DNA of 64,000 nt, from the NCBI GenBank assembly GCA_965262725.1, contig OZ253555.1, forward strand, positions 32,001-96,000, in the 5' to 3' direction. Position numbers and translations under genes: made by a program. Shown piece after piece: positions 25,556 through 30,736 of this stretch (positions within the stretch are counted from its first letter, which is position 1; the number at the start of each line of letters is the position of its first letter). The notes beneath the pieces were generated by a model. That model was not told the origin of the DNA. It searched no databases and worked only from the letters and a program-made list of their open reading frames with translations. Origin of the DNA: Dehalococcoidia bacterium. Its GTDB lineage: Bacteria; Chloroflexota; Dehalococcoidia; UBA2979.

Positions 25556-26728
25556 GTGATCCACCGGCAGCGACAGCCCCACGGACGCCTCGTGGACTGC
25601 CCCGGCAACTACCGCGCCTTCGTGCCGGCTCCACCCCCGCCATCCCTCTCCTAGGATGAGCATCTCACGCTTGGCCTGTCCGCCGCCGACCGCGCCATCG
25701 GCAGACTCGCCGGTGAAGGACGGCGACTCCCCCACCCGCATCTCCTGATCCGGCCCTTCGTCCGCAGGGAGGCCGTGCTCTCCAGCCGCATCGAGGGCAC
25801 GCAGGCGACTCTGGGGGAGTTGCTTGCGGCCGAGGCCGGCGCCGCCGTCGACCGCAGCCCGGACGACCTGCGTGAGGTCGGGAACTACGTCACTGCCCTC
25901 GAGTACGGCCTGGAGCGCCGTGCAACGCTGCCCGTCTCGCTGCGTCTCGTGCGAGAACTCCACGAACGACTCATGCGGGGGGTCCGTGGGGACGTGGCTA
26001 CCCCGGGAGAGTTCCGGCGCAGCCAGAACTGGATCGGGCCACCGGGCTGCACCCTCTACGAGGCGAGCTACGTCCCGCCCCCGCCTGCCGAGCTGATGCC
26101 GTGCCTCGACGCCTGGGAGCGGTTCCTTCACGATCAGTCCCTCCCCCCGCTCGTGCACGCCGCCGTCGCCCATGCCCACTTCGAGGCGATCCACCCCTTC
26201 CTCGACGGCAACGGCCGCGTCGGGCGCCTGCTCATCACGCTCCTGCTGATCGCGCGCGGCGTCCTCCCCTCACCCCTGCTCTGCCTGAGCGCCTACTTCG
26301 AGTCGACGAGGGACGCCTACTACGCTCACCTGCTGGCACTGACGGAGCGGGGGGAATGGGAGGAGTGGCTGACCTACTTTCTGCGAGGGGTCGTGCTGCA
26401 ATCGGAGGATGCCCTGGAGAGGATCGAGCGGCTCGACGACCTGCTGGCGGGCTGGAGGCGGGGGCTCGCGGCCGCGCGCTCACGACTGCCCGAGCAGGCA
26501 CTCGACCTCTTCGCCGAGAACCCCTTCTGGACGGTGCGCGGCGTGTCCTCACGCCTCGGGGTGGCCTTCACGACCGCTCAGCGGGGCATCGAGCGCCTGC
26601 AGGCGTCCGGCATCGTCACCCGCGTGGGAGAAGGTCGCCGCAACCGCGTCTACTGTGCGGAGGCCGTCCTGAACATCCTGGAGCAGCCCTTCCCTCCTCA
26701 GAGAGGTGCTCCGGCCGCGACGTCCTGA
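25556..26728 (+). pseudogene. fic: Fic family protein with an in-frame TAG at 25652
   Basis: YRAFVPAP, EAVLSSRIEGT, HPFLDGNGRVGR, C-terminal winged HTH. Confidence 0.9.
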
Positions 26729-27057
26729 CCACACCCCGAGGATCCCGCTGCGAGGACTCGCGATTCAGCGCACGATTGCGGATCGTGACGGACCGGGGCC
26801 CGCCTCGGCTGCATCCGCGGGCTGCTTCGATGACCTGCTGCGCTCATCGTCCAGGATGAGCTTCTCGCGCATGCGACGCTGCTCGAGGCGTTCGGGCCGA
26901 CGCTCGGCCGGCCGCACGTGGACACACTGAATGGATCGCGCCACAGCAATATGAAGGAGCTTCGCTTTGGGGATTATATGGGAAAGTGCCACGAGATGAT
27001 AGGCTAGAGCGGTGACCCGCAACGTCCTGAGACAGGCGGGCCACCGCTCTCGACGAT

Positions 27058-27128
27058 GGGGCGTGCAGGCTTGCCGGGGTAGACTTACACCCTGCCCCCG
27101 CCGGGTTCGACTCCCGGACGCTCCACCA
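27058..27128 (+). ncRNA. tRNA-like / tmRNA-TLD-like small RNA (71 nt)
   Basis: Acceptor stem GGGGCGT/ACGCTCC with G3:U70, discriminator A, encoded CCA, T-arm CCGGG-TTCGACT-CCCGG, central helix GGGGTAG/CTGCCCC, no canonical D-arm. Confidence 0.7.
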
Positions 27129-27287
27129 TCACCTTACCAGAGGGAGGGGCAGCCGCCGACTTTGCCGGCAGGCCGAGTACAGCCCGCGCCAACTCCTGCG
27201 GCGACGCGTCGATCCGATTATCTACTCGCTTCGGCACGTCTCAGCCTCTCTTCCCACATCTAGGGTGTTGGACGCGTTCGGCGTTTG

Positions 27288-27782
27288 TCAAGGTGCGTCC
27301 GAGGGGGCGATCTCGACATGCCAGGCCCCGTCGCAGAGCACCAGGAGCTCGATGCGCGCTGTGAGCCGGGCTGTGAAGGTGACCACCTGCACCGCCTCCC
27401 AGTGACCGCGCTCCTTGTTCCAGCCGACAGAGGTGTCGCGAATCGCGACGATGGACGTGCCGTACTTGCTGTGGTCCTCGACCCACTTCGACGCCGAGCG
27501 GTCGAGCACGTGCATGCTGCACAGGTCGAGGAACTCGGTGTGCTCTGCGTCCAGCCACGTGGAGCGGGCAGTGTATCTGCCGGGGGCGAGCACAAAGGAG
27601 TCGCTCGTGAAATCCCCCACCCCGTCAAATGTCCCGGCCGGCGGATCTGGCTCGGGCACCGCGCTCTTGACGAGGGCGCGGTGTTCGTCGGTCAGGTCGT
27701 CCGGAAACAGGGCGCTCAGGTCGCTGCCAGCGAGGTGGGACGCGATCACGATAAGCACGGCCAAGATGAGCGACGACAGCAC
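27288..27782 (-). CDS. Exported hypothetical protein (IS passenger)
   Basis: Hydrophobic N-terminus; FDGVGDFTSDSFVLAPGRY beta-rich domain. Confidence 0.65.
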   Translation of the reverse strand: MLSSLILAVLIVIASHLAGSDLSALFPDDLTDEHRALVKSAVPEPDPPAGTFDGVGDFTSDSFVLAPGRYTARSTWLDAEHTEFLDLCSMHVLDRSASKWVEDHSKYGTSIVAIRDTSVGWNKERGHWEAVQVVTFTARLTARIELLVLCDGAWHVEIAPSDAP

Positions 27783-27977
27783 GTGGAGCCCCCTCGCGGA
27801 GCAGGTCGGGGATTGACCGCTCTCGCCAGATGGCCCTTACACCGGCACAGCCCCGCGAGGAGACATGGGTCTCCCCGACCTCTGAGAGGTGCCGATGCAG
27901 GTCGCTCTGGCGAGAGCTGCGGGATGCTACCACAAATGGCGTGTCGCGCGGCGACACGCTCCGGTACAATCACCGGT

Positions 27978-28322
27978 ATGACCCCCAAGCAGACCGATCA
28001 GGCGATCGCTGAGCTTGTGACGAGCTTTGCTGCGAACCAGCAGGCTCGCGGGTTCGCGCAGATGCGGCTCCAGTCGGTTGGACGCCAGCTACAGGAGCTT
28101 GGGAAGGCTCTCGTCGACACACCCCGCGCCGTGTGCCTCAAGGATGGCGTTATCGCCAAGAACTACGCTGATGCAGGCGCAACCGTCGAGGACGTTACGT
28201 GGGATGGCCATTCTCTGCGAGACATGATCGAAGCCTACCATGAGGCCCTCACCGAGCAGGATCGTCTCTCCGCGACAGCGAGGACCTGCGGGCTGGATAA
28301 CGTCCTCCGGATCGACCCCTAG
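27978..28322 (+). CDS. Hypothetical helical protein (IS passenger), probably leaderless
   Basis: MTPKQTDQAIAELV...; TACAAT -10-like box at 27965, 7 bp before the ATG. Confidence 0.65.
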   Translation: MTPKQTDQAIAELVTSFAANQQARGFAQMRLQSVGRQLQELGKALVDTPRAVCLKDGVIAKNYADAGATVEDVTWDGHSLRDMIEAYHEALTEQDRLSATARTCGLDNVLRIDP

Positions 28323-28340
28323 CTCGGGGGTCTCACGCGA

Positions 28341-29279
28341 CTAGGCCACAAGGTCACAGTAGCGCAGGCGCTTGCCCTGCATCCCCCGCCAGATCGCGGC
28401 CATCTGATCGATCGTGTCCATCGGGCGCTGGTTGTGGCGGCCCGCGAACTCGGCGACGTAGCGGTCGAGGTGCTTCGGGCTCATGCGGTGGTACGTCCCG
28501 TAGTAGCCGCGCTTGAGCATCGACCAGAACGACTCGATACCGTTCGTGTGAGCTTGACCGTTGACGTACTCGCCCACGCTGTGGGCGACCGTCTCGTGAT
28601 TCGGGAGGCCCCGGTACGCGCCGTGGTCGTCCGTGTAGACATCGGCCTCCTGCGCGATGCGCGAGAGGACGAACGGCTTGAGCGTCGCGCCGTCGGTGCG
28701 CTCGACGACGCGGGCGCTCACCTGGCCTGATACACGATCCTTGACGCCGGCGACGGCGGTCTTGCCGACAGGCCCGCGGCCCGCGCGCAGCTTCATGCTC
28801 GCGTGCTTGTTGTGCTCCTTACCGCCGATGTAGGTCTCGTCCGCCTCGACGGGGCCGATGAAGCCGTTGAGGTCGCCCTGCGCCTCCCATGCCTGGCGGA
28901 TGCGGTGTACGAGGTGCCACGCGGACTTCTGCGTGACCTCGAGGTCGCGGTGCATCTTCATCGACGAAACACCCTTGAGCGAGGTCGAGAGCACGTAGAT
29001 CGCGATCGCCCATGTCTGGTAGCCAAGCTTCGAGGACTGCATGGCCGTGCCGGTGCGAACGCTGAAGCGCTTCTTGCAGTCGCGGCAGCGGAAGGGCATG
29101 GACTTGTGGACGGCGTCGGTCTTCACGTCTAGGGAGCCGCAGGCTGTGCAGGCGGGAGAGCCGCCCCAGCGGGTCTCTACGAACCAGTCCTCGGCGGTCG
29201 TGTCGTCGGGGAACAAGCGAAACAACTCTCGCATGCTCATCCCCTTGCGGTGGTACTGGCCCGGCGCCTTCTGCGTCAT
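28341..29279 (-). CDS. tnp: IS1595-family DDE transposase
   Basis: Zn ribbon CTAC...CRDCKKRFS, VEADETYIGG, YTDD, HTNGIESFW; AAGGAG RBS. Confidence 0.96.
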   Translation of the reverse strand: MTQKAPGQYHRKGMSMRELFRLFPDDTTAEDWFVETRWGGSPACTACGSLDVKTDAVHKSMPFRCRDCKKRFSVRTGTAMQSSKLGYQTWAIAIYVLSTSLKGVSSMKMHRDLEVTQKSAWHLVHRIRQAWEAQGDLNGFIGPVEADETYIGGKEHNKHASMKLRAGRGPVGKTAVAGVKDRVSGQVSARVVERTDGATLKPFVLSRIAQEADVYTDDHGAYRGLPNHETVAHSVGEYVNGQAHTNGIESFWSMLKRGYYGTYHRMSPKHLDRYVAEFAGRHNQRPMDTIDQMAAIWRGMQGKRLRYCDLVA

Positions 29280-29533
29280 CTCCGGATTCTCCTTGCTACA
29301 CAAGGATCATATCATCTCGTGGCAGTTTTGTATATAATCCCCTTCGCTTTCGGGCCGCTGGAGGCGTGTGGCGCGTCGCCTTCGCGTTCGACCCACGGCG
29401 GCGGGCCATGCTGCTCGCAGCCGGTGACAAGGCAGGTCTGGATGAGCGGCGCTCCTACCGCCAGTTGATCAGGAGGGCGGACCAGCGGTTCGACTCCCAT
29501 CTCGAGCGGCTGGGGTGAAGCACGGAGGTGACC

Positions 29534-29891: not shown

Positions 29892-30436
29892 CTATCCCCG
29901 TCTGCGCGGGACCCGCCTGAGAGGTTCCGAGGAGCGGGTGGCTCCTCTGGGACTCGCGAGCTGCCGCTCCAGCGCCGTGAACGCCTCGATGAGTTCGGGA
30001 GCCTCGAACGCACGGTTTCGGCGTCCGACGGTCAACTGCGTGAGGATGCCGGCCTCCTCCAGCCGGTTAATGGCCTGGCTTGTCGCCTGGTACGACCGGC
30101 CGATCAGGTCCGCCGCCGACGCGCGGCGCACCGGCCCCAGCCGCCCGCGCCAGGCGTCCTGGAGCGCCCGCACCTGCTCCTCGAAGCGCCCGGCGTCCTC
30201 GGCGGCGCGTCTGTATGCGCTCGCGAAGAGCGCGATCCAGCGGTTGACGCCGGCGCGGGCATCGTCCGAATCGGGCACGCCCTCGTAGCGCGTCGCCGTG
30301 AGGCCACCCACGTAGTCGCCGGGCCACGTGGCGAGGATCAACGAGATCGGCGGGAGGATGCGTGGTGCGAGCCCGCGTCGTCGTAGCACGAGGTGGATGA
30401 GCGCGCGTCCGGTTCGCCCGTTCCCGTCGATGAACG
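29892..30436 (-). pseudogene. C-terminal fragment of a Fic protein (paralog of 49194-50465)
   Basis: PFIDGNGRTGRALIHLVLRRRGL...RNRAFEAPELIEAFTALER. Confidence 0.85.
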
Positions 30437-30633
30437 GCCTGCTCGACCATCCCGGTTCTCCGGCGCCCGATCTTCCGCTGGCTCTATCCAGCCACGGCCG
30501 CAGCTGCGGGCGTAGTCGAGGAAGCCCCTCGTGAGGCGCTGGTGCAGCGCGTCGGGCGTCGGCCACGGCGGCCGGAACGTTATCGACGGCGAGGTAGCGG
30601 GCACGCTCTCGCAGAAGGCCCAGGCCTCCTCCA
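30437..30633. repeat. About 195-bp direct repeat of 33629-33823
   Basis: Near-identical sequence; looks like the 3' end of an unidentified gene. Confidence 0.9.
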
Positions 30634-30736
30634 GGCCCCTCGAGCACCGCGTCGAGCCGCCGGCTGGTAGTGGGCCAGACGTGGTGGCTCCTGATCCGAC
30701 AGGCAATCGCGGCGCGCGTCGACGAGGGGCGCGACC

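Follow-up and report, generated by a model that had tools for sequence, protein, structure and literature searches.

What kind of RNA is encoded by the 71 nucleotides (nt) at positions 27058-27128 of the stretch analysed here, 64,000 nt from the genome of a Dehalococcoidia bacterium (contig OZ253555.1; this whole stretch is called the window in the following), and what could such a gene do at the end of an insertion sequence (IS) of the IS1595 family? An earlier note, made from the letters of the sequence, had taken it for a transposon-borne copy of the transfer RNA (tRNA)-like domain (TLD) of transfer-messenger RNA (tmRNA) without a tag open reading frame (ORF). Our analysis leads to a different answer. 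Most likely, the gene specifies a structurally minimised but complete tRNA that belongs to a family travelling at the ends of transposable elements. The structure of this RNA, its conservation with covariation and its places on mobile DNA are directly demonstrated.

On the plus strand, the gene reads GGGGCGT/GCAGGCTTGCC/GGGGTAG-ACTTACACC-CTGCCCC/CG/CCGGG-TTCGACT-CCCGG/ACGCTCC/A/CCA, and the minimum-energy fold consists of the acceptor stem, a D mini-hairpin, a 7-bp helix with a 9-nt loop and a 5-bp T arm (Table 1). The acceptor stem with G3:U70, the discriminator A73, the encoded CCA and the perfect T arm had been noted before, and the fold agrees with them. The 11-nt linker that had been described in place of a D arm is, on the other hand, a covarying 3-bp hairpin whose loop always contains GG, in other words a miniature D arm. 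A canonical D arm comprises 3-4 bp and a 7-11-nt loop and is preceded by nucleotides 8-9, whereas that of the window RNA has 3 bp and 4 nt and directly abuts the acceptor stem; a canonical anticodon arm has 5 bp and 7 nt, with U33 and a purine at position 37, compared with a stem of 7-8 bp and a loop of 9 nt in the window RNA, most relatives having 7-nt loops with U33 and often a C at position 37. The parts of the molecule are a 7-bp acceptor stem stacked on a 5-bp T arm, the 3-bp/4-nt D hairpin, no variable loop and the encoded CCA, while the central helix is extended to about 8-9 layers and capped by an anticodon-type loop.

Seen in isolation, this fold is no better than chance (z = -1.57; 13 of 200 shuffled sequences fold equally well), so that the significance of the structure comes from the comparison of homologues. 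The runs of ARAGORN and Rfam that the earlier note had advised left the window copy uncalled, the latter at the gathering score. At relaxed thresholds, the only Rfam matches were mascRNA-menRNA (24 bits, cut-off 42.5) and tRNA-Sec (18.3 bits), and no tRNA or tmRNA model matched the local region (tmRNA: E up to 10). Among the four IS-borne relatives described below, ARAGORN names a single one, L036, as 'tRNA-Trp'.

Homologues were collected by several routes. The transposase of the element has at least 568 relatives in the genome collection, and 80 of these loci were used, mostly from metagenome-assembled Chloroflexota, Acidobacteriota, Binatia and others; in 28 of them, it was possible to define the element ends together with target duplications. 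Four of the 80 loci (L019, L020, L027 and L036, all from Chloroflexi or Dehalococcoidia) hold a homologue of 69-71 nt, located 88-104 nt inside the transposase-distal end and after a hairpin. A covariance model built from the five IS1595-borne sequences was used for finding further members. The RNA is rare: the model found it in one of 150 other genomes of the class, and a sequence pattern in two of 400 other genomes of the phylum, where the scan mostly returned what appeared by eye to be 3' ends of tmRNA, besides these two true members. A metagenome scan in which the acceptor stem of the window type was fixed and only compact lengths were admitted yielded 66 loci with 49 distinct sequences, many of them compact and scoring 46-67 bits with the model, some being 74-nt tRNA-Ala(UGC) with near-normal D arms. 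Viral loci were searched with the model to the extent of 100 out of 117. One sequence, L067 (42.9 bits, no CCA), was excluded as doubtful, and the assignment of L046 is ambiguous. The tRNA genes near L034 and L096 had been considered as IS cargo and were rejected as they are positioned outside the IS.

Covariation was assessed in a core set of ten sequences, none of which had been found with a fixed acceptor sequence. In this set 94.1% of the cells are paired, compared with 71.0 ± 1.9 in shuffled controls, and none of 500 shuffles reaches the observed values; 15 of the 22 pairs have changed on both sides, and the covariation score amounts to 0.635 as opposed to 0.09-0.11 for slid partners. A larger alignment of 46 sequences was drawn from 44 sources, i.e., the ten earlier ones and 34 of the 66 metagenome loci, with about one entry per distinct sequence of at least 45.8 bits, duplicates and lower-scoring, mostly 74-nt UGC forms being omitted. 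Here, 93.1% of the cells are paired (72.8 in shuffles) and 17 of 22 pairs have changed on both sides. The compensatory changes for which the earlier note had proposed to look are thus present in both sets.

G1:C72, G2:C71, G3:U70, A73 and CCA occur in all ten core sequences, whereas acceptor pairs 4-7 covary. The D mini-loop carries GG in ten out of ten cases, and all three pairs of the D mini-stem have changed on both sides; the T loop reads TTCGA in nine (TGCAA in L065), with G53:C61 throughout. The acceptor and T stems are fully (100%) paired in the core set, and the 7/5 arrangement of the two is found in all members. For a D loop to make contact with the T loop at the elbow, its GG is required. 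Given these conserved elbow and acceptor features, the RNA retains everything that is required for an L-shaped molecule with an alanine-type end. The alanine identity that had been read from the window copy, G3:U70 plus A73, is therefore a constant of the core family, and G3:U70 is also present in three further genes of a tandem array on the metagenome contig L350, which were recovered with the model rather than with the pattern that fixes the acceptor. According to excerpts of two articles, G3:U70 suffices for alanyl-tRNA synthetase (AlaRS) and converts non-alanine tRNAs to alanine acceptors (PMC11415595; PMC5389517).

Could the gene nevertheless be a decaying passenger tRNA gene or the remnant of an integration site, without a function of its own? 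The failure of tRNA detectors on the window RNA, the insignificant single-sequence fold and the irregular window loop would fit such a view, as would the occurrence in the same genome of partial 3' copies of tRNA-Ala(GGC) (3613902-3613967 and 361587-361662) that are probably attachment-site remnants of integrated elements. We consider it hardly credible all the same, because the acceptor strands are kept by compensatory changes in 10 to 46 homologues residing on various element types and in various genomes, no member has pseudogene-like broken pairs in the acceptor or T arms (99-100% paired), and 66-85% divergent flanks exclude a single recent clone. A copy of host ssrA (genome positions 2110198-2110550) or of a host tRNA-Ala gene is ruled out by differences in acceptor pairs 5-7 and in the T arm, which apply to ssrA and the tRNA-Ala genes alike and settle the comparison with the host ssrA that had been called for. 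The remark that the locus is not a simple att scar has proved right in that both acceptor strands are maintained, and the case that the earlier note had named against itself, a decayed fragment of ssrA or tRNA-Ala lacking covariation and absent from relatives, is contradicted by the covarying homologues.

The tmRNA proposal itself fared less well. In this view, an alanylated mimic of the TLD would bind SmpB and enter stalled ribosomes without tagging, or would titrate SmpB and EF-Tu. The window RNA does share G3:U70, A73, the CTCCACCA end, the T arm and a reduced D region with the TLD (RF00023), including predicted alanine acceptance, and has no canonical D arm, and apparent TLD-only RNAs without a tag ORF exist on phage contigs. 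Eight viral contigs carry such apparent 'mini-tmRNAs' (L108, L142, L152, L175, L185, L200 and L219, 66 nt each; L199, 73 nt), which are made up of a G3:U70 acceptor, an unpaired AAUGGUUUCGACGGGA, a short hairpin, a T arm and CCA. A D-loop motif defines tmRNA, and the unpaired stretch of the viral RNAs is presumably of this tmRNA D-loop type. The window RNA, however, has a paired and covarying D mini-hairpin in its place and a short helix capped by an anticodon-type loop; an mRNA-like domain, a long P2 helix and an unpaired D loop are all missing from it, and it measures 71 nt in total. When RF00023 was run on this genome, 11 matches were obtained, including ssrA with 135.9 bits and three tRNA-Ala genes with 30-43 bits, and neither of the two copies of the window RNA was among them. 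Host ssrA also differs in the acceptor pairs and T arm mentioned above. From the covarying D hairpin and the anticodon-type loop it follows that the RNA is a compact tRNA rather than a TLD, and a role as tmRNA mimic appears very improbable.

The surroundings of the gene fully bear out the IS-borne location that had been suspected: inverted repeats, 8-bp target duplications, a second copy and a transposase with the DDE_Tnp_IS1595 domain are all present. The 201 bases around the RNA occur twice at 100% identity in the 3.67-Mb genome, the second element copy (1979203-1981577, ~2.4 kb, 99.7% identical) being flanked by the target duplication ATTGTTTT. Oriented inward and preceded by a hairpin, the gene begins 89 nt inside the transposase-distal end. 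A hairpin precedes the RNA by 4-14 nt in every IS-borne member, and its core, GAGCGG..CCGCTC, is common to the window, L019, L027, L036 and L317, a carrier of another type (see below). The left inverted repeats of L027 and L036 contain an inward TTGAC-type -35 box and a -10-like box directly before the hairpin, and promoter-like boxes in front of the hairpin are likewise seen in L105, L298 and L311. The five IS1595 carriers share no cargo gene, and the passengers of the other carriers are unrelated small secreted or membrane proteins. The passenger ORFs in the window match no Pfam or PADLOC family, and as DNA the passenger region is absent from 40 relatives apart from short chance matches.

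The same genome contains another IS1595 element (2128009-2131139, 3131 bp, target duplication AATGCGAA) whose transposase is 62% identical. It bears a canonical 77-nt tRNA-Asn(GTT) with CCA, unlike host tRNA-Asn, which lies 93 nt from the transposase-distal end in the position and orientation of the window gene and also follows a hairpin. Furthermore, the compact tRNA occurs in a miniature inverted-repeat transposable element (MITE) with IS1595-type ends, the cargo of which comprises a hairpin, an 84-nt class-II-like tRNA(CGC) without CCA, and the compact tRNA (Table 1); in L065 this MITE is interrupted by a full IS1595 insertion. A phage-like contig (L174, 59.7 bits) carries a member, and on L350 (219-511, minus strand) four compact genes of 69-71 nt follow one another with spacings of 4-5 nt; each of them has G3:U70, A73 and CCA. 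Their loops are AUUGUGA, which we take to be of the tRNA-His type, CUUGCGA, CUUUACA and CUUCUUA, and ARAGORN calls none of them.

There is a second type of carrier: in 21 of the 66 metagenome loci, the RNA is followed after 34-73 nt by the start of a co-directional gene for an IS1/IS6-like DDE transposase (Pfam DDE_Tnp_IS240 and DDE_Tnp_IS1). The same order of RNA and IS1-like transposase is found in L105, from a genome of the window's own family, and in L259 and L260, from two genomes of the same phylum. In diverged pairs (66-79% identical), homology extends from 0-42 nt before the RNA to 754-856 nt after it, that is, to the transposase stop, and the RNA is therefore the left-terminal part of a unit of ~0.95 kb. 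This unit begins with promoter-like boxes (TTGACA, 17 nt, a -10-like box) and continues with the hairpin, the compact tRNA, ~34 nt containing ATTATA and a Shine-Dalgarno sequence, and the ATG. The hairpin stem of L317, GAGAGCGG..CCGCTCTC, is common to the window, L027 and L036, which indicates that hairpin and tRNA travel jointly as one module. An obligatory tie between the RNA and the IS1-like transposase was considered and rejected: in a sample of 401 genomes of the phylum, 28 of 30 such transposase loci, among them L272 of the unpublished genome G426, are without the RNA.

This arrangement lends weight to the main rival of a trans-acting tRNA, namely a tRNA-like leader or punctuation mark that acts in cis. 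RNase P and 3' enzymes would cut the transposon transcript at the module, thereby parting transposon RNA from read-in host transcripts and setting the 5' end, stability or translation of the transposase mRNA, and alanylation would be incidental. It is the main rival because the top half of the molecule is the most constrained and because the module so often leads a transposase gene: it lies 31-85 nt upstream of the transposase start, on the same strand, when the 21 metagenome loci, L105, L259 and L260 are taken together. A promoter-like site stands before the hairpin and a Shine-Dalgarno sequence after the tRNA-like part, the homology of diverged units runs from the module to the transposase stop, the strongest constraint falls on the acceptor/T/elbow half, which is the part that RNase P reads, and the best, sub-cut-off Rfam match, mascRNA, is a tRNA-like 3'-end processing signal. 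On the other hand, RNase P needs neither G3:U70 nor A73 nor the encoded CCA, yet these are invariant; in the window and in the other IS1595 elements the module faces genes on the opposite strand, so that an mRNA which could be matured is missing downstream; no transposase adjoins the four-gene array of L350 or the gene in the phage-like contig L174; and L299 and L300 carry the module without a downstream transposase. We regard a purely cis-acting role as unlikely, though it deserves to be taken seriously.

Eight loci raise another possibility, as an ORF of 250-290 amino acids (aa) lies beside the module, either co-directional and stopping 35 nt before the RNA or divergent. DUF5343 was detected in three of seven tested ORFs and the PADLOC candidate PDC-M34A in three of five; no mention of DUF5343 was found in the literature searched. 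The RNA could accordingly serve as decoy for, or partner of, a tRNA-directed nuclease or modifier or a defence-like system of the host, a phage or the element. Beyond these ORFs, it would fit that loops differ among close relatives and within the L350 array, where one appears to be of the tRNA-His type, and that allo-tRNAs, the nearest precedent, are reported in the available part of the source to occur near toxin-antitoxin systems (PMC5389517). A DUF5343 gene is, however, missing from the window IS, whose passenger ORFs gave no match to a defence family, the passengers of the five IS1595 carriers have nothing in common, alanine identity and CCA would be superfluous for a decoy, and no nuclease gene was found nearby. 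Taken together, a decoy function seems quite improbable.

Whether the RNA can decode depends on its loop. In the core set, as judged by eye, C32 is present in nine, U33 in all ten and A38 in eight sequences, whereas positions 34-37 vary. Anticodon loops that differ in their anticodons show such a pattern. The triplets are UAC, CAA, UUG, CCA, UAA, UCC and UAG, without any alanine anticodon. The 7-nt loops were taken from the model alignment, as mismatches beside the loop shift the register in automatic calls. For the 9-nt loop of the window the register is ambiguous: UAC (Val) results when U33 is taken as the U-turn, and UUA when the shared UUACA is aligned. In the 46-sequence set, 22 loops have the form N-U-U-U-A-N-N, which places UUA at positions 34-36, position 37 being variable. 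The suggestion that the loop TTA could be a stop-reading anticodon thus receives some support from these relatives. A bias of the loop triplets towards rare codons was tried and is not relied on; five of the seven sense codons are 20th or rarer among the 61 in the codon usage of this genome (rough p ~0.04), which served as stand-in for all hosts.

For a tRNA acting in trans, the following course can be envisaged. Transcription would proceed inward from the IS end and include the 5' hairpin leader, the RNA would be released by RNase P and 3' processing, and host AlaRS would charge it with alanine through G3:U70 and A73, irrespective of the anticodon. The charged RNA would then be available as a trans-acting alanine donor with a loop mismatched to alanine codons, and the likeliest effect would be that of a weak transposon-encoded suppressor or missense tRNA. 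UAA would be read by the relatives with UUA at positions 34-36, and GUA or UAA by the 9-nt loop of the window. That the RNA is made, processed, alanylated and acts in trans is the explanation that we favour, with a confidence that stops a little short of an even chance. The array of four genes with different loops on L350 speaks in its favour, since it is trans-acting tRNAs that occur in arrays. Of all links in this chain, the one between charging and decoding is the weakest; decoding appears plausible.

Several observations weigh against this explanation. The search pattern had fixed the acceptor in 33 of the 46 sequences, so that G3:U70 is not independent evidence there. The extended central helix is paired in 83-89% of cells compared with 99-100% for the acceptor and T arms (helix 3/4 is meant here), which means that constraint is strongest on the top half and fits roles without decoding, and the middle parts of several members miss the consensus when folded in isolation. 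The window loop has 9 nt instead of 7, and its central helix contains a bulge and an A.C mismatch. In UUA-type loops, position 37 is mostly C and sometimes G or U; a purine is expected at this position in tRNAs, and decoding would therefore be poor. No TAA recoding is apparent in 20 contigs with UUA-type RNAs, where taking TAA as a sense codon increases ORF cover no more than taking TAG or TGA as one. A suppressor or missense tRNA should be harmful. Among the stops of 986 ORFs of the genome, TAG is the commonest (503) and TAA the rarest (53), and GUA is not very rare, ranking 19 of 61. Finally, a promoter scan found no sigma-70-like site on the plus strand of the window, and the match in the left inverted repeat is weak and was made by eye.

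One variant of the trans-acting reading concerns the transposase itself, which might carry the codon of the element's own Ala-tRNA at places where alanine is needed, so that full activity would be reached only when the tRNA is expressed. The three GTA codons of the window transposase, out of 23 Val codons, fall on alignment columns with alanine fractions of 0.23, 0.71 and 0.11 among 70 other transposases; the third of these columns is Ala in the four nearest relatives shown (L020, L027, L036, L037), and only one of the 20 other Val codons stands at a column where Ala exceeds Val. In L027 (loop CUCAAAA, anticodon CAA), the sole internal TTG falls on a column where the fractions are 0.69 for Ala and 0 for Leu and which is three residues behind a Glu of the conserved YV.EFAGRHN stretch, which we take to be the catalytic Glu region of the transposase; columns with Ala of at least 0.65 number only 11 of 313. 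However, the test was made post hoc on small numbers, the window and L019 represent one lineage, Val for Ala is a common neutral change, the five TGG codons of L036 (anticodon CCA) all coincide with conserved Trp columns, and CAA codons are absent from L020. An independent test on IS1-like elements failed: the GTA codons of L263 and L105 are at Val-type columns (Val 0.83, 0.33, 0.67), and L261 is without CTA. We therefore hold such self-recoding to be a remote prospect. Hardly better are the chances of the more far-reaching picture of a transposon with a private code, that is, an own Ala-tRNA for GUA, UUG or UAA and the matching codon placed in the transposase where alanine is needed, such that jumping depends on the element's tRNA, or, more broadly, of mobile 'alanine-for-anything' tRNAs that act as suppressors on IS, MITEs and phages; this is a long shot.

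How does the family relate to known systems? With tRNA-Ala it shares the GGG start, the UCC-A-CCA end with G3:U70, the 7/5 acceptor/T stack and a canonical T loop, and the tRNA-Ala(UGC) genes of 71-74 nt on phage contigs have a similarly short D arm directly abutting the acceptor stem; unlike tRNA-Ala, the core sequences combine the absence of an alanine anticodon with a D arm of 3 bp and 4 nt, no variable loop and a longer central helix. On the metagenome contig L293 (1738-5348), an array of 24 tRNA genes includes tRNA-Ala, Met and Arg(cct) genes of 72-73 nt with the anticodon at position 30-31, so that short D arms are not confined to alanine tRNAs on such contigs. Allo-tRNAs (Mukai et al. 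2017, PMC5389517) are likewise non-canonical and bacterial, and the excerpted text of that report describes some with G3:U70 and the non-alanine anticodons GCG or UUA, which insert Ala in Escherichia coli, a location near transposon-related genes and toxin-antitoxin loci, and partly non-translational roles as a suggestion. Their defining features in the same excerpts are a long variable arm and an acceptor/T arrangement of 8/4 or 9/3 (PMC5389517), unlike the compact family with its 7/5 arrangement, missing variable arm, minimised D arm and fixed place at transposon termini. MascRNA and menRNA (RF01684) resemble the window RNA in a tRNA-like shape with little of a D arm, a possible substrate of RNase P; they form a eukaryotic family without alanine identity, and the window RNA misses its 42.5-bit cut-off. 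In D-arm-reduced mitochondrial tRNAs, a short connector in place of the D arm still works in translation, yet according to the accessible part of this source the D-armless forms need organelle-specific factors, and D-arm loss is described there for mitochondrial tRNAs only (PMC7609411).

As to the carrier, the window element has the DDE_Tnp_IS1595 domain, terminal inverted repeats and 8-bp target duplications of its family. Some IS1595 subgroups carry extra genes between the transposase and the far end, as is known from ISfinder. No report of an RNA gene as IS1595 cargo was found among the papers listed for IS1595 and tRNA, nor did we find an earlier description of the family in the literature on IS1595 with tRNA, allo-tRNAs, tRNA-like RNAs in connection with insertion sequences and AlaRS, mistranslating tRNAs or bacterial and phage tRNAs without a D arm, supplementary tables being outside this search. 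If the explanation favoured here is true, the family would constitute a new structural class of bacterial tRNA, distinguished by its minimised D arm, the lack of a variable loop and its long anticodon limb, and missed by standard detectors. It would also be the first RNA gene to form a fixed terminal module of DNA transposons, be it at IS1595 ends, in the MITE, where together with the hairpin and tRNA(CGC) it is the sole cargo, or as leader of the IS1-like unit. AlaRS ignores the anticodon; such genes would for this reason be ready-made missense or nonsense suppressors that can be moved between genomes, with a bearing on changes of codon meaning and on the ways in which mobile elements tune or burden host translation. 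Even if the RNA were only a handle for RNase P, bacteria would have in it an equivalent of the known tRNA-like processing signals.

Table 1. Coordinates of the compact tRNA gene, its carrier element and related features. Positions refer to the window unless a locus is named.
Feature	Position	Strand	Remarks
Compact tRNA-like gene	27058..27128	+	71 nt; 87.9 bits with the five-member covariance model
Acceptor stem	27058-64 with 27118-24	+	7 bp, G3:U70
D mini-hairpin	27065-74	+	3 bp/4 nt, GCA-GGCU-UGC, loop GGCT
Central helix	27075-82 with 27092-27100	+	
Central loop ACTTACACC	27083-91	+	9 nt
T arm	27101-17	+	5 bp, perfect
A73	27125	+	
Encoded CCA	27126-28	+	
IS1595-family element	26969..29342		2374 bp; inverted repeats GGGGATTATAT..TGCCACGAGATGAT, 8-bp target duplication
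Target-site duplication, left copy TTCGCTTT	26961..26968		identical 8 bp at 29343-29350
Target-site duplication, right copy TTCGCTTT	29343..29350		
Transposase-distal (left) inverted repeat GGGGATTATATGGGAAAGTGCCACGAGATGATA	26969..27001	+	reverse complement of the right end matches
15-bp hairpin AGAGCGGTGACCCGC ... GCGGGCCACCGCTCT	27006..27050	+	7 nt 5' of the tRNA-like start; presumed 5' leader
50-aa ORF, motif RIDASPQELARAVL	27085..27237	-	3' part overlaps the tRNA-like gene on the opposite strand; putative coding
Passenger ORF, 164 aa	27288..27782	-	hydrophobic N-terminal segment; periodicity of GC content at third codon positions fits the frame
Possible 114-aa ORF MTPKQTDQAIAEL...	27978..28322	+	tentative; sole Pfam match far under cut-off
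IS1595-family transposase, 320 aa	28341..29303	-	DDE_Tnp_IS1595, E = 2.5e-38; Zn_ribbon_IS1595, 2.2e-05 (24.7 bits, slightly below the 25.4 cut-off of Pfam)
Transposase-proximal (right) inverted repeat	29310..29342	-	inward promoter-like site TATACA-17-TATGAT
MITE, 405 bp	L228:1279-1683; also L065, L076, L229; two copies in genome G175		IS1595-type ends GGGGATTACAGG..; 8-bp target duplication TTTCTTTC
ORFs of 250-290 aa beside the module	L299:3112-3861; L300:3875-4666; L317:1953-2723		
ORFs of 250-290 aa beside the module, more distant	L260:4078-4875; L105:557-1405; L311; L298; L295		

Small ORFs of ~50-60 aa with the motif ..Y.PTKAE.E..ID.TPE.LAKAL.. were seen by eye to close the transposase-strand genes of many IS1595 relatives. 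Examples are located at the distal ends of L049, L068 and L092 and at 27085-27237 on the minus strand of the window, and many relatives without the tRNA-like gene end in small ORFs of this kind (..RID.TPE.LAKAL..); a related small ORF in the element with tRNA-Asn stops 4 nt from that tRNA. A degenerate IS1595 copy, in which only transposase residues 131-319 are left, is present at genome positions ~702346-704240 beside a second tRNA-Phe(GAA) gene (703373-703449) that is preceded by hairpins. More generally, the genome is crowded with IS copies at many sites (e.g., ~342.5 kb), one 1.49-kb repeat being present in at least 14 near-identical copies, and an identical 82-nt ARAGORN call, 'tRNA-Ser(tga)', appears three times, once within a stretch that is repeated elsewhere. 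In the window, the IS has an ORF with a Fic/DOC domain (25775-26728, plus strand) immediately on its left and another ORF, weakly matching Fic (29892-30647, minus strand), on its right, and short repeats of this Fic-flanked region recur at ~65.6-66.6 kb of the genome.

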